Shown here in pieces: positions 24,763 to 58,039 of a DNA stretch of 60,447 bases. The position numbers and the translations under genes were made by a program. Origin of the DNA: an uncultured Desulfobacterales bacterium (GTDB lineage: Bacteria; Desulfobacterota; Desulfobacteria; Desulfobacterales; C00003060); the NCBI GenBank assembly GCA_964502635.1, contig CAZCXI010000001.1, forward strand, positions 1 through 60,447, written 5' to 3'. The notes below the pieces were generated by a model. That model ran no database searches. It was not told the origin of the DNA and saw only the letters and a list, made by a program, of their open reading frames with translations. Positions within the stretch are counted from its first letter, which is position 1. The number at the start of each line of letters is the position of its first letter.

Positions 24763-24806
24763 TTAACCCTAGCGTTGGTGCGCGGTTTTACCAACGCTAG
24801 GGTTAA
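24763..24806. terminator. Perfect 17-bp stem hairpin at a gene 3' end
   Basis: ttaaccctagcgttggt (24763-24779), a 10-nt loop, then accaacgctagggttaa (24790-24806). The right arm contains the stop codon of the 24803..25426 gene. There is no clear U-tract on the minus strand. Confidence 0.5.
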
Positions 24807-25426
24807 TACACGAGTACTAACCCGAGATGCGATATGAAAGGTACGTCTGATGGTGTGGTAGCCGTTCCAACGGGATAGATATCCCAGCCTGCCCGTGCTG
24901 CCATCTTGTAGGCATCCATTCCCACCGCATGCATGGAAGGCCTCCCCTTCAAAGGATGCCGGCATGACTTTTCGGCTTGCAAAGCGCTGCAATCCTCATT
25001 CAAGCAAAGGGTGGTCTTGCACGAGGCTCCGCCAAACCCAACGGCCAGATAGTAGCCATCATAATATGCCTGTGCCTCGATCTTTGATACAATTTCAAGA
25101 TTCTTCACCTTCATCTCGTGGCTGCTCGCACCGTCTTTCTCATAAGGCCCGTCCACTTTGAAGAGGATAGCGTATTGGAAGCCCTCAACGACTGTTTTAA
25201 CCCATTCCGCATCGGGCGTTTGAGGTGGACAATTGATGTTTGTCCCGCTTACTGGACATTTAGGAAATAAGCATTTAGCCACTACTCTGCGGTCAACAAC
25301 CACGTCATTAGATCGTATGATTCTGGCGGCCGTGGCCCCCAGTTCGACAGCTTTTTGCCTGTATCCTTCCAGATCGCTACGAAGGCTCTGTTCTGAAATC
25401 TCGTGTGCAATTCTGCGAAGCATCAC
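24803..25426 (-). CDS. DUF2284-like predicted metal-binding protein
   Basis: Cys pattern CLFPKCPVSGTNINCPP ... CKTTLCLNEDC ... C, as I recall for DUF2284. 207 aa. Confidence 0.5.
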   Translation of the reverse strand: MMLRRIAHEISEQSLRSDLEGYRQKAVELGATAARIIRSNDVVVDRRVVAKCLFPKCPVSGTNINCPPQTPDAEWVKTVVEGFQYAILFKVDGPYEKDGASSHEMKVKNLEIVSKIEAQAYYDGYYLAVGFGGASCKTTLCLNEDCSALQAEKSCRHPLKGRPSMHAVGMDAYKMAARAGWDIYPVGTATTPSDVPFISHLGLVLVY

Positions 25427-25486
25427 GTCCCAGCCCTGTCTTTGTCTTGTGAAAAGCTTACCACATGTATTGGTGTCGAGTAGGTA

Positions 25487-25675
25487 TCAACTCGTCATCC
25501 AATGTTTGTCATCCAATATTCTGTAAGCATTCTTGATCACATCTTCCAGTCTCATTCTGTAATCCATGGGAAGGTTCTTGTAGTTGTAAAACATGATTTC
25601 TCCGGCGCCCCTGGCTATCATTTCCACCGCCTTGCGGTCGTCAGGAGTCAGGCTCTCTTTGCTCAGTTTGTTCAT
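25487..25675 (-). CDS. Hypothetical small protein
   Basis: AGGAG RBS before ATG 25675. 62 aa with no recognisable motif. Confidence 0.4.
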   Translation of the reverse strand: MNKLSKESLTPDDRKAVEMIARGAGEIMFYNYKNLPMDYRMRLEDVIKNAYRILDDKHWMTS

Positions 25676-26125
25676 AGAACACTCCTGGCAGATTGATATG
25701 CATAGACCATCGGCCCTCCGGTTCTGAGAGGCAGGCCCCAGGTGAGCATGACTCACCAGGGGCCTGAAACAGGAGAAAAGAGATGAAGCCTAGCAGCTTC
25801 ATCCGAACACGGGGCCTTTGAGTGGAGGGTCAGCGCCATCAAGATCCCGTATGTTTATTATCTCAACACGTCACACAAGAAGTCCAATAGCAAATATCAA
25901 TCAATCGGTATGGCTGATATGGAAAAAATCTATAGAATAGACAAGAACCCTTAGGATTGTATTGTAAATTTCAATAACGATAGCCCACCATTATTGATAT
26001 TACATATTTGACACCTGTGTCTAAAGTAGAGAAAATTGATCGATTTTGCCTAATGGCAGCGCTTTGCCTGCTGAGCAAAAGCAGCTGTGGACGGCCTCAC
26101 TTCCGCCATGAAAAGGAAAGGTCAT

Positions 26126-34019: not shown

Positions 34020-36266
34020 ATGGCTAAGATCGTAAAGCTTGCTCCCATAGACCGAATTGAAGGGCATCTGGATATCGAAACGGTGGTCTCCGATGCCACA
34101 AAGCTGACCACTGACGCCAAGTGTCAGGCTGTCATGTTTAGGGGCATTGAGGAGATTATGAAAAAGAGAGACCCGAGGGATGCCCCCATTATCACGCAGC
34201 GCCCCTGTGGGGTCTGCCCCACGTCCCATGGTGTGGCCTCCAGCAAGAACATCGGAGATGCCTTTGGGTTTCGATGTGACAACGACTTCGTGAACGGGCC
34301 GGATCCCATCGACGTGCCCAACAACGGCCGTCTCCTGAGGAACTTGGCGCTGGGCTGCAATTATGTCATGTCTCACTTGGTCCATTTCTACCACTTGGTG
34401 GCTCTGGACTACGTGAACGTGAACAGCACAGGGCTCATCCCCAAGGGCTTTGCCTGCCCTAACTATGACGACCGGTTCTACGCCCGGGGCATTGATCCGA
34501 CGGGCAGCCTGGGGGCACCGGCCTATACGGTAAACAATATCGGCGGCGCGGCCGGTACAGTGCCTTCGCCTGTTGTGGGGGACCTGACCGCCTACTTTGC
34601 GAGCCAGTACGTGCGGGCCCTCAAGTTCCGGCGGATGGCCCATCAGATCCATGCGCTCTTTGCGGGCAAGATGCCCCACGTGTCTAATTTCACACCGGGT
34701 GCCATGACCAATAAGCCCTACGACTCCTCTCCAACCGGGGCGGATCCGGCTGTGGTTCAGAAGTTCAGGGAAATCCTGTATGCCGGACCGGGTTATGCCC
34801 TTTCAGACAGGACCCATCCCCTGAACGGACAACCGATCACCGTGAGTAACCCCCACCCGGAGAGCATCCTCGGTTTCATCGGAAAACCCACGGACTTCTG
34901 GAATTGGGTCAACGGGGTGAGTGTCACGGGAACACCGCTGGGCGGTCCACTCGGCGGGCCCTTTGATCCTGCGGCACTACCGCTGTGGGCCCAGGTAGGA
35001 GACGGCTCGGGGACGGCGGGTACCAACTGGCAGCCCTACATCGGCACCCATCTCTTTGATGTCGTGGCCGCCGCCCATGTATTCCCCGAGTATTTCTGGA
35101 TCGGCACCGGAGTGAACCGGCATCTCGCCTGGGGCGCCTTTGAGGGCGCGGTTGGCGATGCGCCATGGATCGGGACAGGCCATGCAGACAACCGGCTCTG
35201 CACCCGATTCCGAACCCACGTCAATCCCACCACGGGGGCTGTCATCGGCTGGTATCCCGTGGACCACCTGGATTCTGTGGAAATGGTGGACAGTTCCTGG
35301 TACGACGACACCGCGGGCAAGAAGCGGCACATGTGGCAGGGCAAGACCAAGTGGAACCCGGACAAGGCCGGGGCCTACAGCTATGCCAAATCCCCGAGGT
35401 ACTACAATGCCTCTTCGGGCACGGGTCATCCCGTGGGGCACTTGCCCTATGAAGTGGGACCCCTTTCCCGGATGATGGCCAATGCCAAGTACGTGGTGGA
35501 CGATGGCGGTCTTGGAAATCCCGTGGTCTTAAATGCCGTGGTGAGCGGCGACCGGACGGGCTACTACCCGGGTATCCTCAGCGACGTGGATCAGACGCTC
35601 GTTCCCACCAATCCATGGATTGGTGGATCTGGGGTAGGAATCTTCCCGTCGGCTGGGCAAGCGCCCACCGATTTCACTGCCGGTCCCTATGGCTCGATCC
35701 TCTACGGGAATTACCTGAACGCCCTGGCGAGCCCCGCCGTTTATAAGAGCAACTATACGGGCGACGGTGTTCTCGACCGGATTGCGGCTCGGGCCTTGGA
35801 AACCTACTATGTGGCCAAGCATCTTTGGTATTGGTTCAACCAGCTCGATCCGAACGAAACATCCAATGTCACGCGACGTTACAACTGGGGCGAGGGCAAG
35901 GGCTGGAAGGAGTTCGTGCCCAAATACAGTAAAGGCGTAGGCTTGACTGAGGCCCCGCGGGGTGCTTTAGGCCACTGGATCAAGATTGGCAACAGAAAGA
36001 AAAAGAAGTTGAAGGGGAAGATCTCCAAATACCAGATCATTACCCCTACGGCCTGGCTGGTGAGTCCCAAGGTAGACGCGGGTCTGGGTGACGCCCACGG
36101 CCCCATGGAGGAATCCCTGGTTGGAACGCCCCTACAGATTTTCGACGAGCCCATTGAGCTCTTGAGAATCGTCCACTCCTTTGACCCGTGTCTCGCTTGC
36201 ACGGTGCATGTGATGACACCGAAAAAGGAGAAAGTGGCTGAGGCGATCGTCGAGCCCGCTGGCTAG
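34020..36266 (+). CDS. [NiFe]-hydrogenase large subunit, unusually long (748 aa)
   Basis: N-terminal RIEGH and RPCGVCPTSH motifs. C-terminal DPCLACTVH followed by an 18-aa extension. AAGGAGG RBS. Confidence 0.9.
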   Translation: MAKIVKLAPIDRIEGHLDIETVVSDATKLTTDAKCQAVMFRGIEEIMKKRDPRDAPIITQRPCGVCPTSHGVASSKNIGDAFGFRCDNDFVNGPDPIDVPNNGRLLRNLALGCNYVMSHLVHFYHLVALDYVNVNSTGLIPKGFACPNYDDRFYARGIDPTGSLGAPAYTVNNIGGAAGTVPSPVVGDLTAYFASQYVRALKFRRMAHQIHALFAGKMPHVSNFTPGAMTNKPYDSSPTGADPAVVQKFREILYAGPGYALSDRTHPLNGQPITVSNPHPESILGFIGKPTDFWNWVNGVSVTGTPLGGPLGGPFDPAALPLWAQVGDGSGTAGTNWQPYIGTHLFDVVAAAHVFPEYFWIGTGVNRHLAWGAFEGAVGDAPWIGTGHADNRLCTRFRTHVNPTTGAVIGWYPVDHLDSVEMVDSSWYDDTAGKKRHMWQGKTKWNPDKAGAYSYAKSPRYYNASSGTGHPVGHLPYEVGPLSRMMANAKYVVDDGGLGNPVVLNAVVSGDRTGYYPGILSDVDQTLVPTNPWIGGSGVGIFPSAGQAPTDFTAGPYGSILYGNYLNALASPAVYKSNYTGDGVLDRIAARALETYYVAKHLWYWFNQLDPNETSNVTRRYNWGEGKGWKEFVPKYSKGVGLTEAPRGALGHWIKIGNRKKKKLKGKISKYQIITPTAWLVSPKVDAGLGDAHGPMEESLVGTPLQIFDEPIELLRIVHSFDPCLACTVHVMTPKKEKVAEAIVEPAG

Positions 36267-42373: not shown

Positions 42374-43441
42374 TCAAGCGATTTGCAGTTTGCCCTTCGC
42401 ATCTAAGCCAATGACCTCGCCGATAATCGTCGCTGATCGCACTCCCTCATGTTTTAATTCCTCAAGGCAGGCCTCCCCCTCATCCGCACCAATGGAGATA
42501 ACCAACCCGCCTGAGGTTTGGGGATCAAAGATGAGGTCCATGAGAACCGTTTCCACGCCAGGCTTGATTTCCACCATGTGCTCACAGAAATGCCTAGTCG
42601 CATAACTTCCGGCCGGTATCAGACCCATCAAGGCATACTCCTTGGCCTCAGGAATGATCGGGATCTTGTCAGCATAGACAGCGATCTCCACATGGCTGGC
42701 TCTGGCCATTTCCAAAAGGTGTCCCCCGAGGCCAAAACCGGTCACGTCCGTACAGGCATGAGTTTTGTATTTCAGCATAATCTGTGATGCCTGGCCGTTA
42801 AGGGTCGCGGCGATCTCGATCATCGTCTCCAGCGCTTTTTCGCTAGCCAATTTCCCCTTAACGGCGGTGGCAATGATACCCGTTCCGATGGGTTTGGTCA
42901 GTATGAGTTGATCCCCGACCTCGGTACCTTGATTGGCCAGGATTTTCTGGGGATGGACAACGCCTGTCACAGAAAGGCCATACTTAAGCTCCTGATCATC
43001 CACACTGTGTCCCCCTAGCAGGACCGCACCTGCCTCGTGAATCTTTTCCAGACCCCCTCGCAGGATTTCTTTGAGGATCTCCTTAGGCATATCCGTGATT
43101 GGAAAACAGACGATGTTCATAGCGGTCAGCGGCCTGCCACCCATGGCGTAGACATCGCTTAAGGCATTGGCTGCCGCAATGCGGCCGAAGTGATAGGGGT
43201 TGTTTACGATAGGCGTAAAAAAATCGAGGGTCTGTACCAGGGCCATATCGTCGTTCAGCTTATAGACGCCGGCATCATCAGAGGTCTCTATGCCTACAAG
43301 GAGATTAGGGTGCCTAATCACGGGCAGGTCCCTCATCACCTCTTCCAGGTCCCCTGGACTCAGTTTGGCAGCTCAGCCCGATGCCCTAACCTTTTCGGTC
43401 AAGTTAATAGGGTCATCGAGGGGGCTCAACGCATCAGGCAT
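42374..43441 (-). CDS. selD: Selenide, water dikinase (selenophosphate synthetase), selenocysteine-containing form
   Basis: The 321-aa ORF carries DDAGVY, GGHSVDD and TDVTGFGL motifs. It extends upstream through an in-frame TGA (43373-43375) to ATG 43441, giving MPDALSPLDDPINLTEKVRASG-U-AAKLSPGDL, the canonical G-(C/U)-x-x-K SelD active site. Confidence 0.9.
43344..43375 (-). promoter_or_regulatory. Sec UGA codon plus candidate SECIS hairpin of selD
   Basis: UGA, then 14 nt downstream UCCAGG-GGA-CCUGGA (43358-43344), a G-rich apical loop at the distance expected for bacterial SECIS elements. Confidence 0.55.
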
Positions 43442-44336
43442 ATTTCTTGGCAGCGCACCTTCCATCGCCTTCCTTTGCTATCTCCTCCAAGACCGACTCC
43501 AAGGCCTTTGGGATCTCCTTGACTATTGCAGCCACCTGTGTTGCCGGGGTTGGATTGGCAAGGGCACCCGCCAGGCGATTCACCCTGGCAGCGATGGTCG
43601 CCGCCTGTGCCACGGGGTATCCAGCGTAGGTGAGTGCGGCCACGATGCCCGTCAGCGTATCTCCTGTGCCACCAATGGGCTCCAGGGTCGTCACGTTCGG
43701 GGTGTCAACAGCAGCCAACAGCCCGTCCTTGGTGCATATATAATCTTTCGACCCCTTGATCAATAGTGTTTTGGCAGCATTTTCCCCTTCAAATGCCCTT
43801 TTGATCAGATCAGGAACGTTCTTCTCCTCGTGAAGAATGAAACTCCGGGTGTAAAACGGGTGAGGGGCCAACTCGTCGGCCAAGAAGGCCAATTCTCCGA
43901 TGTCAGGAGTAAAAAGGTCGTAACATGGCGAAAACCCGCTCATTTTGGCCGCATACATGTAACCTGCATCGGCAATCAGCAGCGGGAGTTTGCCTCTTTC
44001 TTCCAAGGCCAACAAGATCCGGTTATGCCAGTCAACATCAGGCTGAAGGTAATGAAAGGTAACAACCTTAGCACCCATAGCTGGAAGCCGGGTCTTCAGA
44101 TGCTCGTATAGCTTTCTGCTGCCGTCTCCTACCCCCTCATCTCCTACGAGAAAACAGAAAGGCTTGGAGAGGCCAAGCGTCTCACATGCCATGGATGTGG
44201 CGGCAATCATGGCAGGTGTCCCTCGGTTGACCGACGTTTCATGGCCATCCAAAAACAAGCAATCCCCCTTCAGTGTAACCGTCCCTGAAACCAGGGGGTA
44301 ATACTTATCCGGAACCGTACCGATCAAAGCGAGCAT
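43434..44336 (-). CDS. YjeF_C-like / ribokinase-fold carbohydrate-kinase-family protein of unknown role
   Basis: GGTGDTLTG anion-hole motif near the C-terminus. 300 aa. Overlaps the selD start by 8 nt and the upstream gene by 13 nt. Confidence 0.6.
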   Translation of the reverse strand: MLALIGTVPDKYYPLVSGTVTLKGDCLFLDGHETSVNRGTPAMIAATSMACETLGLSKPFCFLVGDEGVGDGSRKLYEHLKTRLPAMGAKVVTFHYLQPDVDWHNRILLALEERGKLPLLIADAGYMYAAKMSGFSPCYDLFTPDIGELAFLADELAPHPFYTRSFILHEEKNVPDLIKRAFEGENAAKTLLIKGSKDYICTKDGLLAAVDTPNVTTLEPIGGTGDTLTGIVAALTYAGYPVAQAATIAARVNRLAGALANPTPATQVAAIVKEIPKALESVLEEIAKEGDGRCAAKKYA

Positions 44337-44857
44337 TGACGCTTTATCTCTTCATAAGCCAATTGCAGGGCATACCCGCAAAGGGTATGACCAATTTCCC
44401 TCGGAGCAGGCGACTGTCGAAGATCTTTTCCCACCAGCATGGCCCCCAGGTATGGCACATCCGGGCAACCGCCCCCGGAAATATTCACAATCTCAAGGGT
44501 CTCTTTCTCTATCGTAAGTTTCATGTTGGCCGCGCGCACCATAAGGTATTGCCCATAATCTGTTGTCTTGAACAGTTCAACCGGTTTGAGGAGCGGATCA
44601 TCCACAGGCACTGCTTCCAACGGTTGAACCTTATTAGCTTCCAGTACCCTCAAAATATTCAACTGTTCGACCAGGGGAAATTCGATCACCATGTCACAGC
44701 CGGTCCGCAGCTCGGGGGGCGGCCCCATGACACGAACCTTCCACCCCTTTTTCTCCAAAAGGGATTTGGCCTTGATCACTTCGCTGGTATTGTGAAAGGA
44801 AAGAAACCCTCGATCCGGGCTCTTTTGCTGGGAGGCAGCCCTTTTTCCAAATGCCAT
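44324..44857 (-). CDS. DUF3343-like (putative Se/S carrier) domain protein with an extra C-terminal Cys-containing half
   Basis: The N-terminal FHNTSEVIKAKSLLEKKGWKVRVMGPPPELRTGCDMVIEF fits my recollection of DUF3343. The C-terminal half contains SGGGCPDVPYL. 177 aa. Confidence 0.5.
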   Translation of the reverse strand: MAFGKRAASQQKSPDRGFLSFHNTSEVIKAKSLLEKKGWKVRVMGPPPELRTGCDMVIEFPLVEQLNILRVLEANKVQPLEAVPVDDPLLKPVELFKTTDYGQYLMVRAANMKLTIEKETLEIVNISGGGCPDVPYLGAMLVGKDLRQSPAPREIGHTLCGYALQLAYEEIKRQCSL

Positions 44858-45099: not shown

Positions 45100-46191
45100 T
45101 TAGGCCTTTTGTCTCATGGTCAGTCCAATGAACGAGCACACCAGAAGGCCAATAATGACAGCAGCAATACCGTGAGGACCAACCCCTTTGGGTGAGCTTG
45201 CCAGCCCAAAATTGTGGGCAAAACCAGCACCAACAATCATACCCAGGACAAAGACGGCCGCATCACCATCACCTTCTCCTGCCAGGAATAACTGGCGGCC
45301 CGGGCAGCCACCGGCAAGGCAAAAGGCTAGCCCCGCCACGACCATGCCCCCGAAGTTCCAAAGCTGCATAGTGTGAGCAACGGGTTGTTTGGCAAATCCT
45401 GGATGAAACTGTCCCACAATCAGGTTGGTGAGAAAAGCGAAGGCAATCAGTGCCAGCACACCGTAGAAAAGATAAGGTATGCGAAACAAAATCAGGTCTC
45501 GAAAGGCCCCCATGGTGCAAAATCGGCTACGCTGTGCCAGAAAACCGATGGCAAGACCTATGACAAGAGAAAGTGCAATAGACGCATGCATGGCCCCCGG
45601 ACCCTTCATGCTGTAAAAAAGGATCCCGCTTTTTGGCTCCCCTTTGATCTGGGGAAAACTTAGGAGCAGCACCAGAAAGCCAAGCATGATCAGGGGCATG
45701 AGCCAGCCCACAGATACGTATGTCTTGTTGCTCCGGCCAAGGTTATATCCGCCCTTGAGGAAAAAGGTGCCGATCCATATGCCAACAATCAATCCAAGGA
45801 GGCCAAGGATGGCGTTCCCGTCACCCGCGGAAAGACGCAGCATGGCACGCCAGGGGCACCCCAAGAAAACCAGCGCCCCGATCATGGCAAAGACTCCCAG
45901 CACAAAGCGCACAATAGGAGCAGAACCAGCCCTCGGCCTGAACTCCCTGAACGCATAGGCTGCAATCAACGCCCCGAGGACAAAACCGATGATCTCAGGG
46001 CGCATGTACTGAACCACGGCCGCCCGATGGATGCCGATGGCGCCTGCGATGTCCCGTTCAAAGCAGGCCACGCACACCCCCATATTTCCCGGGTTGCCAA
46101 ATTTTTGCAACAGAGGAGCAAACACGCCAATGAATGCCCCAACAGACACGATTCCCCACCGCGTGCCCAGAAAGTTTTTGACTTGCCCCAT
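45100..46191 (-). CDS. yedE: YedE-family putative selenium/sulfur transporter
   Basis: Polytopic membrane protein with the GNPGNMGVCVACFERD motif and a second CPGRQ half-site. 363 aa. Confidence 0.75.
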   Translation of the reverse strand: MGQVKNFLGTRWGIVSVGAFIGVFAPLLQKFGNPGNMGVCVACFERDIAGAIGIHRAAVVQYMRPEIIGFVLGALIAAYAFREFRPRAGSAPIVRFVLGVFAMIGALVFLGCPWRAMLRLSAGDGNAILGLLGLIVGIWIGTFFLKGGYNLGRSNKTYVSVGWLMPLIMLGFLVLLLSFPQIKGEPKSGILFYSMKGPGAMHASIALSLVIGLAIGFLAQRSRFCTMGAFRDLILFRIPYLFYGVLALIAFAFLTNLIVGQFHPGFAKQPVAHTMQLWNFGGMVVAGLAFCLAGGCPGRQLFLAGEGDGDAAVFVLGMIVGAGFAHNFGLASSPKGVGPHGIAAVIIGLLVCSFIGLTMRQKA

Positions 46192-52899: not shown

Positions 52900-53061
52900 G
52901 CCATACCATTGATGAACGGACAATACTTTCCAATGATAACAGATTCCCAATCGGTATAGTAAACTTCAGGGGAAAATCCCCATGGCACCCAAAAAGGCTC
53001 TGTGCATTGTACAAGACATATATCTGCACGGGGCCTGTTTTTTCTGACAGGAGTTGTTCAA

Positions 53062-55026
53062 GTGGCAGAAAGAATAGGCATTTTTGTCTGTGAATGCGGT
53101 CCGAACATCAAGGAGGCCATGGACCTGGATGAAGTAGTGACATTCGTCCAAGGCCTTGAAAACGTGGTCCTGGCCAAAGCCTTTGGGCTGTTGTGTGCAG
53201 TGGAGGGTCAAGCGCTTATCGCAAAAGACATCAAAGAGCACGACCTCACGAGAATAGTCATTGCAGCCTGTTCGCCAAAGGAGCATGAAAAGACCTTTAA
53301 GCAATGCCTGGAGAAGGCCGGTCTCAATCCTTTTCTTTTGCAAATCGCCAATATTAGAGAGCAATGCGCCTGGGTGGTTGAAGACAAGGCCCTTGCTACG
53401 GACAAGGCCAAGGCGATCATCCGCGCAGCGGTCAGGCGAGTCGCTCATCATGAGCCCTTGGAGGTTAAAGAGATAGAATGCCAACCGCATGCTCTGGTGG
53501 TAGGGGCCGGCATAGCCGGGATCAGTGCCGCACTGACGCTGGCACAAAAACATAGGAAGGTCTATCTGGTTGAGAAGTTGCCGTGTATCGGGGGCAAAGT
53601 GGCCCGATATGAAGATGTGTTTCCCAGCCTGGAGTGCGCTTCTTGTATCCTTGATCCCATACTCGATGAGGTCTTACATAACGAGCATATCGAGATTCTC
53701 ACATTGACCGAGGTCCAGGAAGTATTGGGCTTTTATGGCAACTTCCTGGTCAAGGTGAACCAAAAGGCAAGGTTTGTGGATACTGGGACCTGTATCGGCT
53801 GCGGAGCGTGCCTTGAGGCTTGCCCGGTTAAGGTAAAAAACGAATATAATGAGGGCCTTGATGAACGAAAGGCCATCTACATCCCTTATGCAGGTGCCTT
53901 GCCGAATGTGGCGGCCATCGATAAGAAGCACTGTTTGCGCTGGCAGCAAGAAGCGTGCAGCGCCTGCAGGGAGGCCTGCCCTTTCGGGTCCATTACCTAT
54001 GAGGACACCGACCAGGTGCGCCAGTTGAGAGTGGGCGCCATCGTCCTGGCTACGGGTTTTGATCTCTTCGACCCGGCGAGGGCGCCCCAATACGGATACG
54101 GTAAGATTAAAGATGTGTATACCAGCCTTGAATTTGAAAGACTGGTCAATTCCACCGGGCCAACCGAGGGAAAGATCGTGTTACGAAACGGCCAGGTTCC
54201 TGAAAAGATTGCCCTGGTGCATTGTGTGGGCTCCAGGTCGAGCAAGTTTCATGAACATTGCTCTACGGTCTGCTGCATGTATCTGCTAAAGTTTGCTCAT
54301 CAGGTCAACAGCCAATTGCCTGGTGCTTCAATGACCGGGTTTTACTCCGACCTATGCCTCCCGGGGAAAAAAGCACAGGGCTTCTTTAACAAGATCTCGC
54401 AAGAGGGCCATATGGAATGGATGCACATGAAGGATCCGGATTCCATAGAGATCACGCAAGTGGACGAAAAGACACTCATCAGGTTTACGGATGTGACTGG
54501 AAGCCCCCGCGAAGTCACCGCAGATATGGTCGTCCTGGCGCCCGCCATGGAAGGCGCAAAAGATGCCGGGGCGATGGCTCAGATTTTCGATATATCTCAA
54601 GGCGGAGCAGAGGGGTTTTTTGCTGAAGAAAACAGCCAGGTGGCCCCTGTCTCAACAGCCATGGAGGGCATATTCATTGCGGGCTGTGCCCAAGGCCCAA
54701 AGGACATTCAAAGCTCGGTGGCCCAAGGGCAGGCCGCGGCAGGCAGGATCTTGTCACGCCTTGTCCCGGGAGAGAAGTTGGCCCTTGAGCCCGTAACCGC
54801 TGAAGTGGATGCAGACCTCTGCTGCGGGTGCAAACTATGCGTTGGCCTGTGTTCCTACAAGGCCATCACCTGCGATAACTTGAAAAACAATGTGGCAATT
54901 AACAAAGTGTTGTGCAGGGGTTGCGGCGTTTGCGCTGCCGCGTGTCCCAGCGGGGCCATTAAGGCTCACCACTTTACGGATACGGAAGTGTCCGAAGAAA
55001 TAAAGGGCCTGGTGCGACATGGTTGA
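53062..55026 (+). CDS. hdrA: Heterodisulfide reductase subunit A-like flavoprotein
   Basis: FAD motif LVVGAGIAGISAAL and ferredoxin motifs CIGCGACLEACP, CCGCKLCVGLC and CRGCGVCAAACP. AGGAG is 8 nt before GTG 53062. Confidence 0.85.
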   Translation: MAERIGIFVCECGPNIKEAMDLDEVVTFVQGLENVVLAKAFGLLCAVEGQALIAKDIKEHDLTRIVIAACSPKEHEKTFKQCLEKAGLNPFLLQIANIREQCAWVVEDKALATDKAKAIIRAAVRRVAHHEPLEVKEIECQPHALVVGAGIAGISAALTLAQKHRKVYLVEKLPCIGGKVARYEDVFPSLECASCILDPILDEVLHNEHIEILTLTEVQEVLGFYGNFLVKVNQKARFVDTGTCIGCGACLEACPVKVKNEYNEGLDERKAIYIPYAGALPNVAAIDKKHCLRWQQEACSACREACPFGSITYEDTDQVRQLRVGAIVLATGFDLFDPARAPQYGYGKIKDVYTSLEFERLVNSTGPTEGKIVLRNGQVPEKIALVHCVGSRSSKFHEHCSTVCCMYLLKFAHQVNSQLPGASMTGFYSDLCLPGKKAQGFFNKISQEGHMEWMHMKDPDSIEITQVDEKTLIRFTDVTGSPREVTADMVVLAPAMEGAKDAGAMAQIFDISQGGAEGFFAEENSQVAPVSTAMEGIFIAGCAQGPKDIQSSVAQGQAAAGRILSRLVPGEKLALEPVTAEVDADLCCGCKLCVGLCSYKAITCDNLKNNVAINKVLCRGCGVCAAACPSGAIKAHHFTDTEVSEEIKGLVRHG

Positions 55027-55438
55027 TGCAGTGACAACCAGTTTTGAACCCAAGATTATTGGTTTTCTCTGTAACTGGTGTTCTTACGAAGGGGCCGATG
55101 CTGCGGGAAGGGCTCGCAAAGTCTATCCTGCGAACCTGAGAGTCGTTAGAGTGATGTGCAGCGGCAGGGTCGATCCTCAGTTCATCCTTGAGGCCTTCAA
55201 AGAGGGCGCTGACGGGGTGATGATCCTGGGCTGCCATCCGGGTGACTGCCACTACAAAGAAGGTAATCTCCAAACGCTTAAGAGATACCATGTATTAAAG
55301 AGGGTGCTGAGCAGATTTGGCATAGAAGAAGACAGATTAAGGCTTGATTGGATCTCGGCCGGCGAGGGGGACAAGTTCGTCCAGGTCGTTTCTGAAATGA
55401 CTGAAAGAATGAGGCAACTCGGTCCCTTGTGTCGCTGA
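55019..55438 (+). CDS. mvhD: MvhD-like hydrogenase iron-sulfur subunit
   Basis: GFLCNWCSY, VMCSGRV and LGCHPGDCHY motifs. 8-nt overlap with hdrA. Confidence 0.9.
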   Translation: MVDAVTTSFEPKIIGFLCNWCSYEGADAAGRARKVYPANLRVVRVMCSGRVDPQFILEAFKEGADGVMILGCHPGDCHYKEGNLQTLKRYHVLKRVLSRFGIEEDRLRLDWISAGEGDKFVQVVSEMTERMRQLGPLCR

Positions 55439-55529
55439 TGCCGGACGGGCGACATCGAGATGACCCTCCGGGTGCCGTGTTGACCCTGTTGGCAATGTCT
55501 CCTTAAACAATGGTTGTAGGTTCCTAAAC

Positions 55530-56507
55530 ATGACGGAAAAACCCAAGATTGCGCTGTATTGGTGTTCAAGCTGCGGCGGCTGCGAGGAATCCGTCGTTGA
55601 CTTGGCAGAGGATCTCTTAACGGTTGCTGCGGCTGTCGATATTGTATTTTGGCCGGTAGCCCTGGATTTCAAGTATAAGGATGTTGTCGCCCTCAAGGAT
55701 GGCGAGATCACCGCAACGCTGATCAATGGCGCCATCAGGACGGATGAACAAGAGCATATGGCCAAAATCCTGAGAAAAAAATCCAGATTGCTCTTCGCCC
55801 ACGGAAGCTGTGCACACCTTGGCGGGGTGGTGGGGCTGGCCAATTTTTACGAACGTGAAGACTTGCTGAACCGTTTATACCAAGAGGTTCCCACGATAAA
55901 CAATCCTCAGGCAATCTTACCACAACCCGAAACCATAGAATCCGGCAAAAACCTACAACTGCCGGATTTCCATGATACCGTCAAGGCGTTGGACCAGGTC
56001 GTAGAGGTGGATTACACGATCCCGGGTTGCCCCCCGACGCCAGAGCTCATCAAAGAGGCCGTGATGATGGTCCTGGAGGACCGGCTCCCGCCGAGGGGGA
56101 GCGTATTGGCGGAAAAAAAGGCACTTTGCGATACATGCCCTCGAAGAGACAGCAAGCCCGAACCATTGCGGATAAAGGAGTTCAAACGGGTCTATGAGGC
56201 GGAGTGGGACCCAACAAAGTGTTTCTTGGCTGAGGGCATTATCTGCCTTGGCCCTGCCACCAGGGGAGGGTGCAATGCACGGTGTATCAATGCCAACATG
56301 CCCTGTCGAGGTTGCTTTGGGCCCACGGACAACGTGAGGGACCAGGGCGCAAAATCTTCCTCCTTCGTCGCGTCCATCATTGATGTCACAGACAAAGAAG
56401 CGTTGGAGAAGATTGTCGATTCCATTCCTGATCCTGGCGGACTGTTCTACCGGTACGGCCTGGCCTCATCCATATTGAAGCGAAAGATGACCAGGGACGG
56501 CTCATGA
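55530..56507 (+). CDS. mvhG: Group 3c-type [NiFe]-hydrogenase small subunit (MvhG-like)
   Basis: No signal peptide. YWCSSCGGCEES, HGSCAHLGG, IPGCPP and CRGCFGP motifs. Confidence 0.8.
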   Translation: MTEKPKIALYWCSSCGGCEESVVDLAEDLLTVAAAVDIVFWPVALDFKYKDVVALKDGEITATLINGAIRTDEQEHMAKILRKKSRLLFAHGSCAHLGGVVGLANFYEREDLLNRLYQEVPTINNPQAILPQPETIESGKNLQLPDFHDTVKALDQVVEVDYTIPGCPPTPELIKEAVMMVLEDRLPPRGSVLAEKKALCDTCPRRDSKPEPLRIKEFKRVYEAEWDPTKCFLAEGIICLGPATRGGCNARCINANMPCRGCFGPTDNVRDQGAKSSSFVASIIDVTDKEALEKIVDSIPDPGGLFYRYGLASSILKRKMTRDGS

Positions 56508-58039
56508 GCAAACGAATCACCATTGACCCCATCACCAGATTGGAAGGACACGGCAAGATTGAAATCTTTCTTGACGACCAGAAGGACGTGGAGCGTGTCT
56601 ATTTTCAAGTCCCGGAACTGAGAGGGTTTGAGAAGTTTTGTGAAGGCAGGGCGGCAGAGGAGATGCCTACCCTTACACAAAAGATTTGCGGGGTGTGTCC
56701 CACAGCCCACCATACGGCGTCGAGCAAGGCGCTGGATGATCTGTTCGGCGTTGAGCCGCCGCCCGCGGCAAAAAAGCTCAGAGAGCTCATGTATAACGCC
56801 TTCATGTTTGAAGACCACCTGTTGCATTTCTTTTTTCTGGGAGGCCCTGATTTGATTGTCGGTCCCACAGCGCCAAGGGCGAAAAGGAATATTCTTGGCG
56901 TCGTAGACAAGGTGGGTATCGAGATGGGAAAAAAGGTCGTTGATATCCGGAAACGGGTCCGGGGCGTCAATGCATTAATTGGCGGCAGCGCCCTTTATCC
57001 TGTTTGCGGGCTGCCAGGCGGCGTTTCAAAGGCCATGACCGAGGAGGAGAGGACCCAAGTCCGGGTCGTGACAAGAGATGCAGTGGAATTTGCCAAACTG
57101 ACGTTGGATCTCTTTGATGATATCGTGCTCAATCATAAGGGGTTGGCCAACTGGCTCACCAGTGATGTCTTCTGTCACAAAACGTACTACATGGGCCTGG
57201 TTGATGATCATAACAGGGTCAACTTTTATGACGGGAAAATCCGGGTGGTTGATCCCAACGGCGAGGAGTTTGTCAAATTCGAGGCAAGAGACTATCTGGA
57301 GCACTTAGAGGAACGGGTTGAACCGTGGAGTTATCAGAAAATCCTCTATTTGAAGAACGTCGGCTGGAAGGGGTTCATCGATGGACCGGATAGCGGTGTT
57401 TATAGGGTAGCCCCCCTTGCCCGCCTCAACGCCTCTGAAGGCATGGCCACCCCCTTGGCCCAGGCCGAGTATGAAAATATGTTTCATACCCTGGCTGAAA
57501 AACCTGTTCATAATACCTTGGCCTACCATTGGGCCAGGCTTATCGAGGTCTTGTACGCGGCAGAAAGAATGGACGAGCTTGCCGCAGATGAGGAGCTCAC
57601 CAGTCCCCGGGTACGCAATCTTCCACATCAAACCCCCAAAGAAGGCGTTGGTGTCTGCGAAGCGCCGAGGGGAACGCTTTTTCATCACTACAAGACCGAC
57701 GAGAAGGCCATTGTAGAGAGGTTGAACCTCTTGGTGGCCACGCAGAACAATGCCGCAGCCATTTGCATGTCGATTGACAAGGCGGCTCGAGCCGCCATCA
57801 AAGGCGGCGCTGTCTCCGATGGCAAATTGAATGTGGTAGAGATGGCCTTCCGAGCCTATGATCCCTGCCTCGCCTGTGCCACGCACTGCCTCCCTGGCAA
57901 GAGGCCAACGGTGGTCATGTCCATGATAGGAGTAGGAATCGACAACGACGTTAAAGATCCCCGCAGTCCAGATACATCGGGACGGGGAACGCACTCGCTT
58001 TTCGGGTTGAACCGTAAGATGTTACGCAAGGAGAGGTGA
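56504..58039 (+). CDS. mvhA: Group 3c-type [NiFe]-hydrogenase large subunit (MvhA-like)
   Basis: RLEGHG, KICGVCPTAHH and C-terminal DPCLACATH motifs, followed by about 50 further residues. ATGA overlap with mvhG. Confidence 0.85.
   Translation: MSKRITIDPITRLEGHGKIEIFLDDQKDVERVYFQVPELRGFEKFCEGRAAEEMPTLTQKICGVCPTAHHTASSKALDDLFGVEPPPAAKKLRELMYNAFMFEDHLLHFFFLGGPDLIVGPTAPRAKRNILGVVDKVGIEMGKKVVDIRKRVRGVNALIGGSALYPVCGLPGGVSKAMTEEERTQVRVVTRDAVEFAKLTLDLFDDIVLNHKGLANWLTSDVFCHKTYYMGLVDDHNRVNFYDGKIRVVDPNGEEFVKFEARDYLEHLEERVEPWSYQKILYLKNVGWKGFIDGPDSGVYRVAPLARLNASEGMATPLAQAEYENMFHTLAEKPVHNTLAYHWARLIEVLYAAERMDELAADEELTSPRVRNLPHQTPKEGVGVCEAPRGTLFHHYKTDEKAIVERLNLLVATQNNAAAICMSIDKAARAAIKGGAVSDGKLNVVEMAFRAYDPCLACATHCLPGKRPTVVMSMIGVGIDNDVKDPRSPDTSGRGTHSLFGLNRKMLRKER

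Follow-up and report, generated by a model that had tools for sequence, protein, structure and literature searches.

An in-frame UGA codon within selD

We analysed a 60,447-nt stretch of DNA (the whole of it is referred to below as the window) from an uncultured Desulfobacterales bacterium (contig CAZCXI010000001.1 of assembly GCA_964502635.1), which carries on its minus strand a co-directional cluster of four genes encoding, in order, the putative selenium transporter YedE, a DUF3343 carrier protein, a Carb_kinase-like protein and, last, the selenide, water dikinase SelD. The full selD coding sequence, assigned from profile and Protein Data Bank (PDB) matches, spans 42374-43441 (-) and comprises 355 amino acids and a stop, with a predicted selenocysteine (Sec, or U) at residue 23. 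Read from ATG 43441-43439, it passes through MPDALSPLDDPINLTEKVRASG to a TGA at 43375-43373 (codon 23) and continues as AAKLSPGDLEEV into MRDL..., all within one frame; the letters after the in-frame TGA begin AAKLSPGDLEEVMRDLPV, and the frame is free of further stops down to TGA 42376-42374, giving 356 codons with the terminator included.

This architecture is lost in the available gene models. The mechanical list of open reading frames (ORFs) opens selD at a GTG (43337-43339, -), located 102 nt (34 codons) 3' of ATG 43441 in the same frame, and the adjoining ATG 43336 (-) is the start of the public gene call: in a public collection of JGI/IMG and Logan gene calls (six contigs), the exact protein is found only as a 320-aa MRDLPV... 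form at 42377-43336 (-). Neither GTG 43339 nor ATG 43336 is the real selD start, and gene calling systematically loses the catalytic N-terminus of this protein. The first-pass annotation of this DNA had noted both that the ORF track starts selD at 43339, without the catalytic N-terminus, and that ATG 43441, the TGA and the MRDL... segment share a frame over 102 nt; the ORF list and a re-reading of the frame bear this out, with all coordinates correct.

The selD ATG at 43439-43441 (-) overlaps by 8 nt the upstream ORF at 43434-44336 (-), whose stop is TGA 43436-43434, an overlap that had been proposed to fit an operon and that we confirm for the last gene of the co-directional cluster. A second in-frame ATG (43465-43463) lies 8 codons 5' of ATG 43441, with an AAGGA 5 nt before it, and falls after the in-frame TAG at 43480 that bounds the open frame upstream; the start codon is therefore not unique. 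One relative (L001) has counterparts of both ATGs, and in three others (L002, L005 and L009) a stop in the frame restricts the possible start to a Met 15-18 codons before the UGA. As short N-termini are thus the rule in the relatives, translation most likely starts at ATG 43441, with ATG 43465 as the alternative.

SelD homology extends across the UGA codon

For profile matches, the 355-aa protein was written with U as C. It scores 393 bits against the SelD equivalog TIGR00476 (cut-off 125), with residues 14-319 aligned from model position 2 onward, as well as 337.1 bits against NF002098 (cut-off 299); in Pfam, it matches AIRS (PF00586, 96.8 bits) and AIRS_C (PF02769, 71.3 bits). These scores place the product in the SelD family as a predicted selenophosphate synthetase and, because the TIGR00476 alignment starts at residue 14 and model position 2, the N-terminus discarded by the gene calls belongs to the family model.

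The same extent of homology is seen with proteins of solved structure. Aquifex aeolicus SelD (PDB 2yye) is matched with an E value of 8.5e-75 in an alignment that begins at residue 12 and spans INLTEKVRASG[U]AAKLSPGDLEEVM, and Escherichia coli SelD (PDB 3u0o) aligns from residue 10, with the ASG-U-AAKLSP segment covered. In both cases U23 aligns with a Cys and K26 with a Lys, which puts the UGA at the column of the catalytic Cys, with the catalytic Lys three residues further on. The SDDAGVY, LDFF, NALSDVYAMGG and TDVTGFGL segments, which carry the Asp motifs for metal and ATP binding, likewise align with their E. coli and Aquifex counterparts. In SelD enzymes, a flexible glycine-rich N-terminal loop bearing the catalytic Cys or Sec and a Lys closes over the ATP site while selenophosphate is made; the corresponding residues of the E. 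coli protein, Cys17 and Lys20, are catalytic and needed by SelD enzymes. The form that starts at GTG 43339 or ATG 43336 has neither the Cys/Sec nor the Lys of this loop. The G-(Cys/Sec)-x-x-K active-site loop that had been recognized from the letters of the DNA is thus present as SG-U-AAK in the alignments with 2yye and 3u0o, and homology to the SelD family runs from residues 10-14 onward and across the UGA, not only from MMRDL.

Conservation and authenticity of the UGA codon

When one genome per GTDB species was scanned, 44 selD loci with 47-85% protein identity were recovered. The closest of them, at 79-85% identity, are found in metagenome-assembled genomes (MAGs) labelled Deltaproteobacteria, Desulfobacteria and Desulfobacterales. 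At the position of residue 23 (43373-43375, -), within the predicted G-U-A-A-K loop, the codon is TGA in 41 of the 44 loci and TGT in the other three, which belong to Lederbergia, a Saprospiraceae MAG and a Bacteroidales MAG. The TGA-type group covers Desulfobacterota, Syntrophales, Dehalococcoidia, a Nitrospira MAG and Clostridia, and includes three assemblies of Clostridioides difficile, a species listed with a Sec-containing SelD (PMC1794560).

A coding signature is found on both sides of the UGA, with conserved codons upstream and the SelD body downstream. The LTEKVRASG segment is unchanged in the 12 closest relatives, even though 3-8 codons in each are synonymous replacements relative to the window, and over the 13 codons before the UGA in 27 loci the nucleotide differences at codon positions 1, 2 and 3 amount to 121, 89 and 239, respectively. 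Judging from this substitution pattern, the codons 5' of the UGA are clearly under purifying selection. TGA is also the normal terminator of 11 of the 23 confident genes in the window, selD included; the genetic code is therefore standard and the recoding local, with no global reassignment of UGA.

The in-frame TGA is not an assembly artefact. At least 11 salt-marsh metagenome runs contain all (100%) of the 31-mers sampled from the 301 bases around it, and the contigs of three of them, which are independent, match positions 43250-43550 with zero differences, at a word depth of 9-25. Words from the same interval are present at about 70-80% in soil metagenome runs, where a diverged strain keeps the TGA and carries a synonymous change in the next codon (GCT to GCA). 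Identical independent contigs and a strain variant that preserves the TGA together exclude an assembly error. The distribution of the sequence points to an uncultured, Desulfobacterales-like inhabitant of salt-marsh sediment as its source.

A SECIS-like stem-loop downstream of the UGA

A hairpin with the sequence UCCAGG/GGA/CCUGGA lies at 43358-43344 (-), starting 14 nt after the UGA and with its loop starting 20 nt after it. In the minimum free energy (MFE) fold, it forms the upper stem-loop of a putative bacterial Sec insertion sequence (SECIS), with 6 bp and a 3-nt loop beginning GG. Constrained folding from 43372, '.((..((.(((...((((((...))))))...)))..))..))...', extends it to a stem-loop at 43330-43371 (-) of -12.9 kcal/mol, whose lower stem contains internal loops and is predicted only. 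Folding of the 61 nt around the UGA gives -24.4 kcal/mol (z = -1.83) and places the hairpin at the apex.

The published bacterial SECIS model (bSECISearch; PMC13188914, Fig. 2) specifies a loop of 3-9 nt and an upper stem of 4-16 bp, and further a G in the first two loop positions, a distance of 16-37 nt between UGA and loop, and an MFE of at most -7.5 kcal/mol (PMC13188914). For our SECIS test, a version requiring a contiguous stem was replaced by one in which the whole stem-loop is folded under constraint. With a loop of 3 nt (GGA), a stem of 6 bp, a spacing of 20 nt and -12.9 kcal/mol, the window hairpin is within all of these limits, as are the corresponding elements of 35 of 42 Sec-type genes and of none of the three Cys-type ones.

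The 42 Sec-type sequences have a hairpin at the matching position of the codon alignment, albeit in two registers located 3 nt apart: a UCCAGG/CCUGGA-like register is seen in the clade of the window and in C. difficile, and a GGUCC/GGACC-like one in Dehalococcoidia and Syntrophales. In a gap-free alignment of the 42 genes (A1), 79% of cells are paired in register a and 87% in register b, compared with at most 64% for control partners slid by 1-3 columns. Because the hairpin overlaps conserved codons (S/G-P-G/A-D-L), each sequence was also tested by synonymous recoding. The local fold of the window (nt 10-33 after the UGA) has -8.1 kcal/mol against a mean of -4.2 for its recoded versions; the Sec-type genes as a group have a median tail fraction of 0.025, with values of 0.05 or below in 29 of 42, counts that are taken over phylogenetically related sequences and are hence not independent. 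In most Sec-type genes, the local fold thus exceeds what coding constraint accounts for. The three Cys-type genes have local folds of -5.8, -2.8 and -2.8 kcal/mol.

Decoding of UGA codon 23 and alternative readings

We regard it as very probable that selD encodes a selenoprotein in which UGA codon 23 is decoded as Sec within the catalytic loop. In the mechanism that we propose, translation would begin at ATG 43441, coupled to that of the upstream gene, and UGA codon 23 would be read by Sec-tRNA(Sec) delivered by SelB, itself recruited by the stem-loop within the coding sequence that starts 14 nt downstream and has hairpin 43358-43344 at its apex. Bacterial Sec insertion is known to proceed through binding of SelB-GTP-Sec-tRNA(Sec) to the apical part of a stem-loop just 3' of the UGA, from where Sec is delivered once the UGA is in the A site (PMC13188914). 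Translation would then proceed to the ordinary UGA stop at 42376-42374, and Sec23 would be placed in the flexible, glycine-rich N-terminal loop, as G-U-A-A-K, closing over the ATP site. The enzyme is predicted to make selenophosphate from selenide and ATP; as synthesis of SelD would itself require selenophosphate, the gene would be autocatalytic. The dependence of SelD on its own product has been discussed as a reason why the Sec trait is maintained (PMC1794560). Actual Sec insertion at codon 23, binding of SelB to the hairpin and the presence of selA, selB and selC elsewhere in the genome are what this mechanism would entail, and we consider them likely.

Several results weigh against this reading or limit its support. 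The SECIS criteria are unspecific, as 209 of 600 TGAs picked at random in the window (about 35%) also pass them, and the isolated 6-bp hairpin has only -7.3 kcal/mol, such that the strict contiguous-stem version of the bSECIS test (at most -7.5) rejects the selD site. Taken by itself, the window gives a borderline result on synonymous recoding (tail fraction 0.062), and true compensatory changes are few, with two pairs per register. RNAalifold on the 42 Sec-type UGA contexts returns no single consensus structure, because the two hairpin registers compete among lineages. No Rfam family matches the selD region even at E <= 10: the whole window searched at gathering thresholds and 43200-43500 searched at E <= 10 gave only chance-level hits to mir-657 and MH_s10, and no SECIS family. 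The 60-kb window contains no selA, selB or tRNA-Sec; it has no tRNA gene at all, and neither SelA nor SelB is among its large ORFs. Finally, HdrA, MvhD and the NiFe hydrogenase large subunits of the window are all Cys forms, leaving no second selenoprotein in it to corroborate Sec decoding.

The SECIS-like hairpin noted by the first-pass annotation therefore stands in part: it is present at the correct distance, agrees with the published criteria and exceeds coding constraint, but about a third of random TGAs satisfy the same criteria. We find it credible that hairpin 43358-43344 is a SECIS, as supporting rather than decisive evidence. Of the expected selA, selB and selC genes, none is in the 60-kb window; in three relatives (L019, L020 and L026), a tRNA-Sec (UCA) lies within about 100-1700 nt of the TGA-type selD. 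That the organism decodes UGA as Sec is, on this evidence, a strong inference but not the demonstration it had been taken for.

Among alternative readings, there is a slight chance that the UGA is read through as an amino acid other than Sec, either as Cys by a tRNA-Sec-like tRNA(Cys) together with SelB or as Trp by near-cognate suppression. The window itself gives nothing on which tRNA reads codon 23, and unusual long tRNAs do exist in the neighbourhood of such genes, as illustrated by the 95-nt tRNA-Sec-like tRNA beside selD in a Dehalococcoidales relative (L015). The GCA anticodon of that tRNA, however, reads UGC and UGU and not UGA, and it comes from a distant relative and from outside the window, whereas a normal tRNA-Sec with anticodon UCA stands beside selD in the three other relatives named above. 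The same TGA-type gene in C. difficile, with its listing among Sec-containing SelD proteins (PMC1794560), also argues for Sec, and the selenium transporter and carrier genes of the operon fit a selenium-using cell.

A yet smaller probability attaches to the UGA being a genuine stop, with a decaying or truncated selD that starts at GTG 43339 or ATG 43336 and with the 22 upstream codons as an untranslated remnant or mini-ORF. Such a gene would match both the ORF finder output and the public gene calls, its truncated product still scores as AIRS/AIRS_C, and it would agree with the lack of visible Sec machinery in the window. A remnant would nonetheless be expected to gather further stops and frameshifts, whereas the 13 codons upstream of the UGA behave as coding, with LTEKVRASG invariant in 12 relatives and third-position differences dominating. 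Moreover, 41 genomes spread over several phyla have the TGA at precisely this catalytic Cys/Sec position, and the truncated form would be without the Cys/Sec and the Lys that SelD enzymes need. An ordinary Cys-type selD, as found in 3 of the 44 loci and only one base away, whose TGT or TGC was misread or misassembled as TGA has a negligible probability, given the presence of the TGA in identical contigs of three independent runs at word depth 9-25, in the diverged strain and in all 11 closest genomic relatives.

Genes upstream of selD

The first gene of the cluster, yedE (45100-46191, -), encodes a putative selenium transporter that matches TIGR04112 (seleno_YedE) with 480.7 bits against a cut-off of 200. 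It is followed by a gene at 44324-44857 (-) for a 177-aa DUF3343 / Se_S_carrier protein, with the domain at residues 18-81 (PF11823, 80.6 bits) and a C-terminal extension of about 95 aa that contains a GGGCP motif. The third gene (43434-44336, -), directly upstream of selD, encodes a 300-aa divergent protein of the ribokinase superfamily, Carb_kinase / NAD(P)HX-dehydratase-like, with a GGTGDTLTG motif and a PF01256 match of 41.7 bits (cut-off 27). Its score against the NAD(P)HX dehydratase equivalog TIGR00196 is 35.6 bits, far under the cut-off of 129.85; it is above the cut-off of no curated NCBIfam family, and PDB sequence searches returned no relative below E = 0.17.

This arrangement is conserved. 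The Carb_kinase-like gene lies directly upstream of a TGA-type selD in 11 of the 44 loci, and the three upstream genes occur in the same order in L001, L002, L004, L006, L007 and L009, in part in L005 and L008, where the contigs end, and, at about 41% identity, in the Dehalococcoidales L015, L017 and L021. The loci in which the trio immediately precedes a TGA-type selD belong to Desulfobacterota, Dehalococcoidales and a Nitrospira MAG. Two of the three genes, YedE and DUF3343, have been proposed in the literature as candidates for selenium metabolism (PMC5322559; PMC9312934); the candidate list of PMC5322559 does not include the Carb_kinase-like gene, and our literature search found no paper linking selD and selenium with YjeF. 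It is conceivable, although rather doubtful, that the DUF3343 carrier and the Carb_kinase-like enzyme form an undescribed nucleotide-dependent step through which imported selenium is passed to SelD at its Sec loop. Of the elements of this locus, only the Carb_kinase-like partner, conserved in a selenium operon, may be new.

Other candidate selenoproteins and tRNA genes

SelD is the sole predicted selenoprotein within this window. A scan for other pairs of ORFs joined by a single TGA gave 101 mechanical candidates, among which only selD is convincing. The earlier suggestion to re-examine split ORFs accordingly yielded no other TGA-split gene in the window, although such genes elsewhere in the genome are worth a look. 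HdrA, MvhD and the NiFe hydrogenase large subunits are often selenoproteins in Deltaproteobacteria. In the window, MvhD (55019-55483, with a TGA at 55436), the best placed of the other candidates, was considered and rejected as a selenoprotein: the Pfam FlpD model is complete (1-123 of 123) before that TGA, and the usual Sec site reads CNWC. Both NiFe large subunits end in DPCLAC, with Cys, and the HdrA ORF is uninterrupted; the HdrA-MvhD-MvhG-MvhA-like set at 53002-58039 (+) consists of Cys forms throughout.

The NiFe large subunit at 34020-36266 (+) is 748 aa long and matches the NiFeSe_hydrog model, of about 500 aa, in three separate stretches, with its N-terminal part (3-234) matched and the C-terminal DPCLAC present, as would fit a large insertion, about 200 aa long, within the protein. 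In the ORF at 24803-25756 (-), which came up among the TGA-joined ORFs, the frame just after an in-frame TGA begins YLLDTNTC and is preceded in the same frame by an upstream ORF of 89 codons; YLLDTNTC may resemble the N-terminus of a PIN-domain (VapC-like) toxin, for which the upstream ORF could be the antitoxin.

Outside the window, the 95-nt tRNA of the Dehalococcoidales relative L015 (4148-4242, +) lies just downstream of its TGA-type selD and carries the Cys anticodon GCA. A tRNA-Sec (UCA) occupies the matching position in L019 and L026. The T-arm and acceptor end of the L015 tRNA resemble those of tRNA-Sec, but not its anticodon and variable arms, and the molecule would seem to be a tRNA-Sec-like tRNA(Cys).

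Relation to known SelD proteins and significance

The Aquifex protein (PDB 2yye, 2zod and 2zau) is the best match of solved structure and shares the loop VR(A/S)SG-[U/C]-AAK-(L/V)-(S/G)-PGDL; it differs in belonging to another phylum, in a less conserved C-terminal region and in the Cys that the crystallised chain has at the position of U23. Native Aquifex SelD is itself a selenoprotein, and the form used for crystallisation was a Cys variant. The E. coli enzyme (3u0o) has the same fold, the DDA, DFF, NA(I/L)SD and TDVTGFG motifs and the same loop logic, with G-C-G-C-K in place of G-U-A-A-K; unlike the window gene, it encodes Cys by a TGY codon, does not depend on recoding and lacks a SECIS.

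Sec-containing SelD is known in C. difficile, Desulfotalea psychrophila, and Geobacter and Syntrophus species (Zhang et al. 2006, PMC1794560), and SelD ranks second in breadth of distribution among the selenoprotein families of prokaryotes, being listed for many Deltaproteobacteria (PMC1794560; PMC13188914). The window gene resembles these in its TIGR00476 family, in the UGA at the same catalytic column and in a stem-loop within the coding sequence right after the UGA; it differs in standing in a yedE-DUF3343-Carb_kinase-like operon rather than beside selA, selB or selC, and otherwise in nothing of substance. Relative to the bacterial SECIS consensus (PMC13188914), the loop, stem, spacing and energy of its hairpin are all within the model, but the sequence is not of the E. 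coli fdhF type, has no Rfam match and shifts its register by 3 nt across lineages. The Sec-type recoding of selD proposed here is of an already known kind, and its recognition is a standard annotation repair.

The correct SelD of this organism would be a protein of 355 aa (or 363 from the alternative start) with Sec23, in place of the 320/321-aa fragment given by ORF finders and public catalogues, which, without its catalytic loop, would be mis-scored as inactive or partial. The organism is a probable Sec decoder, and UGA-split genes elsewhere in its genome therefore deserve a look.

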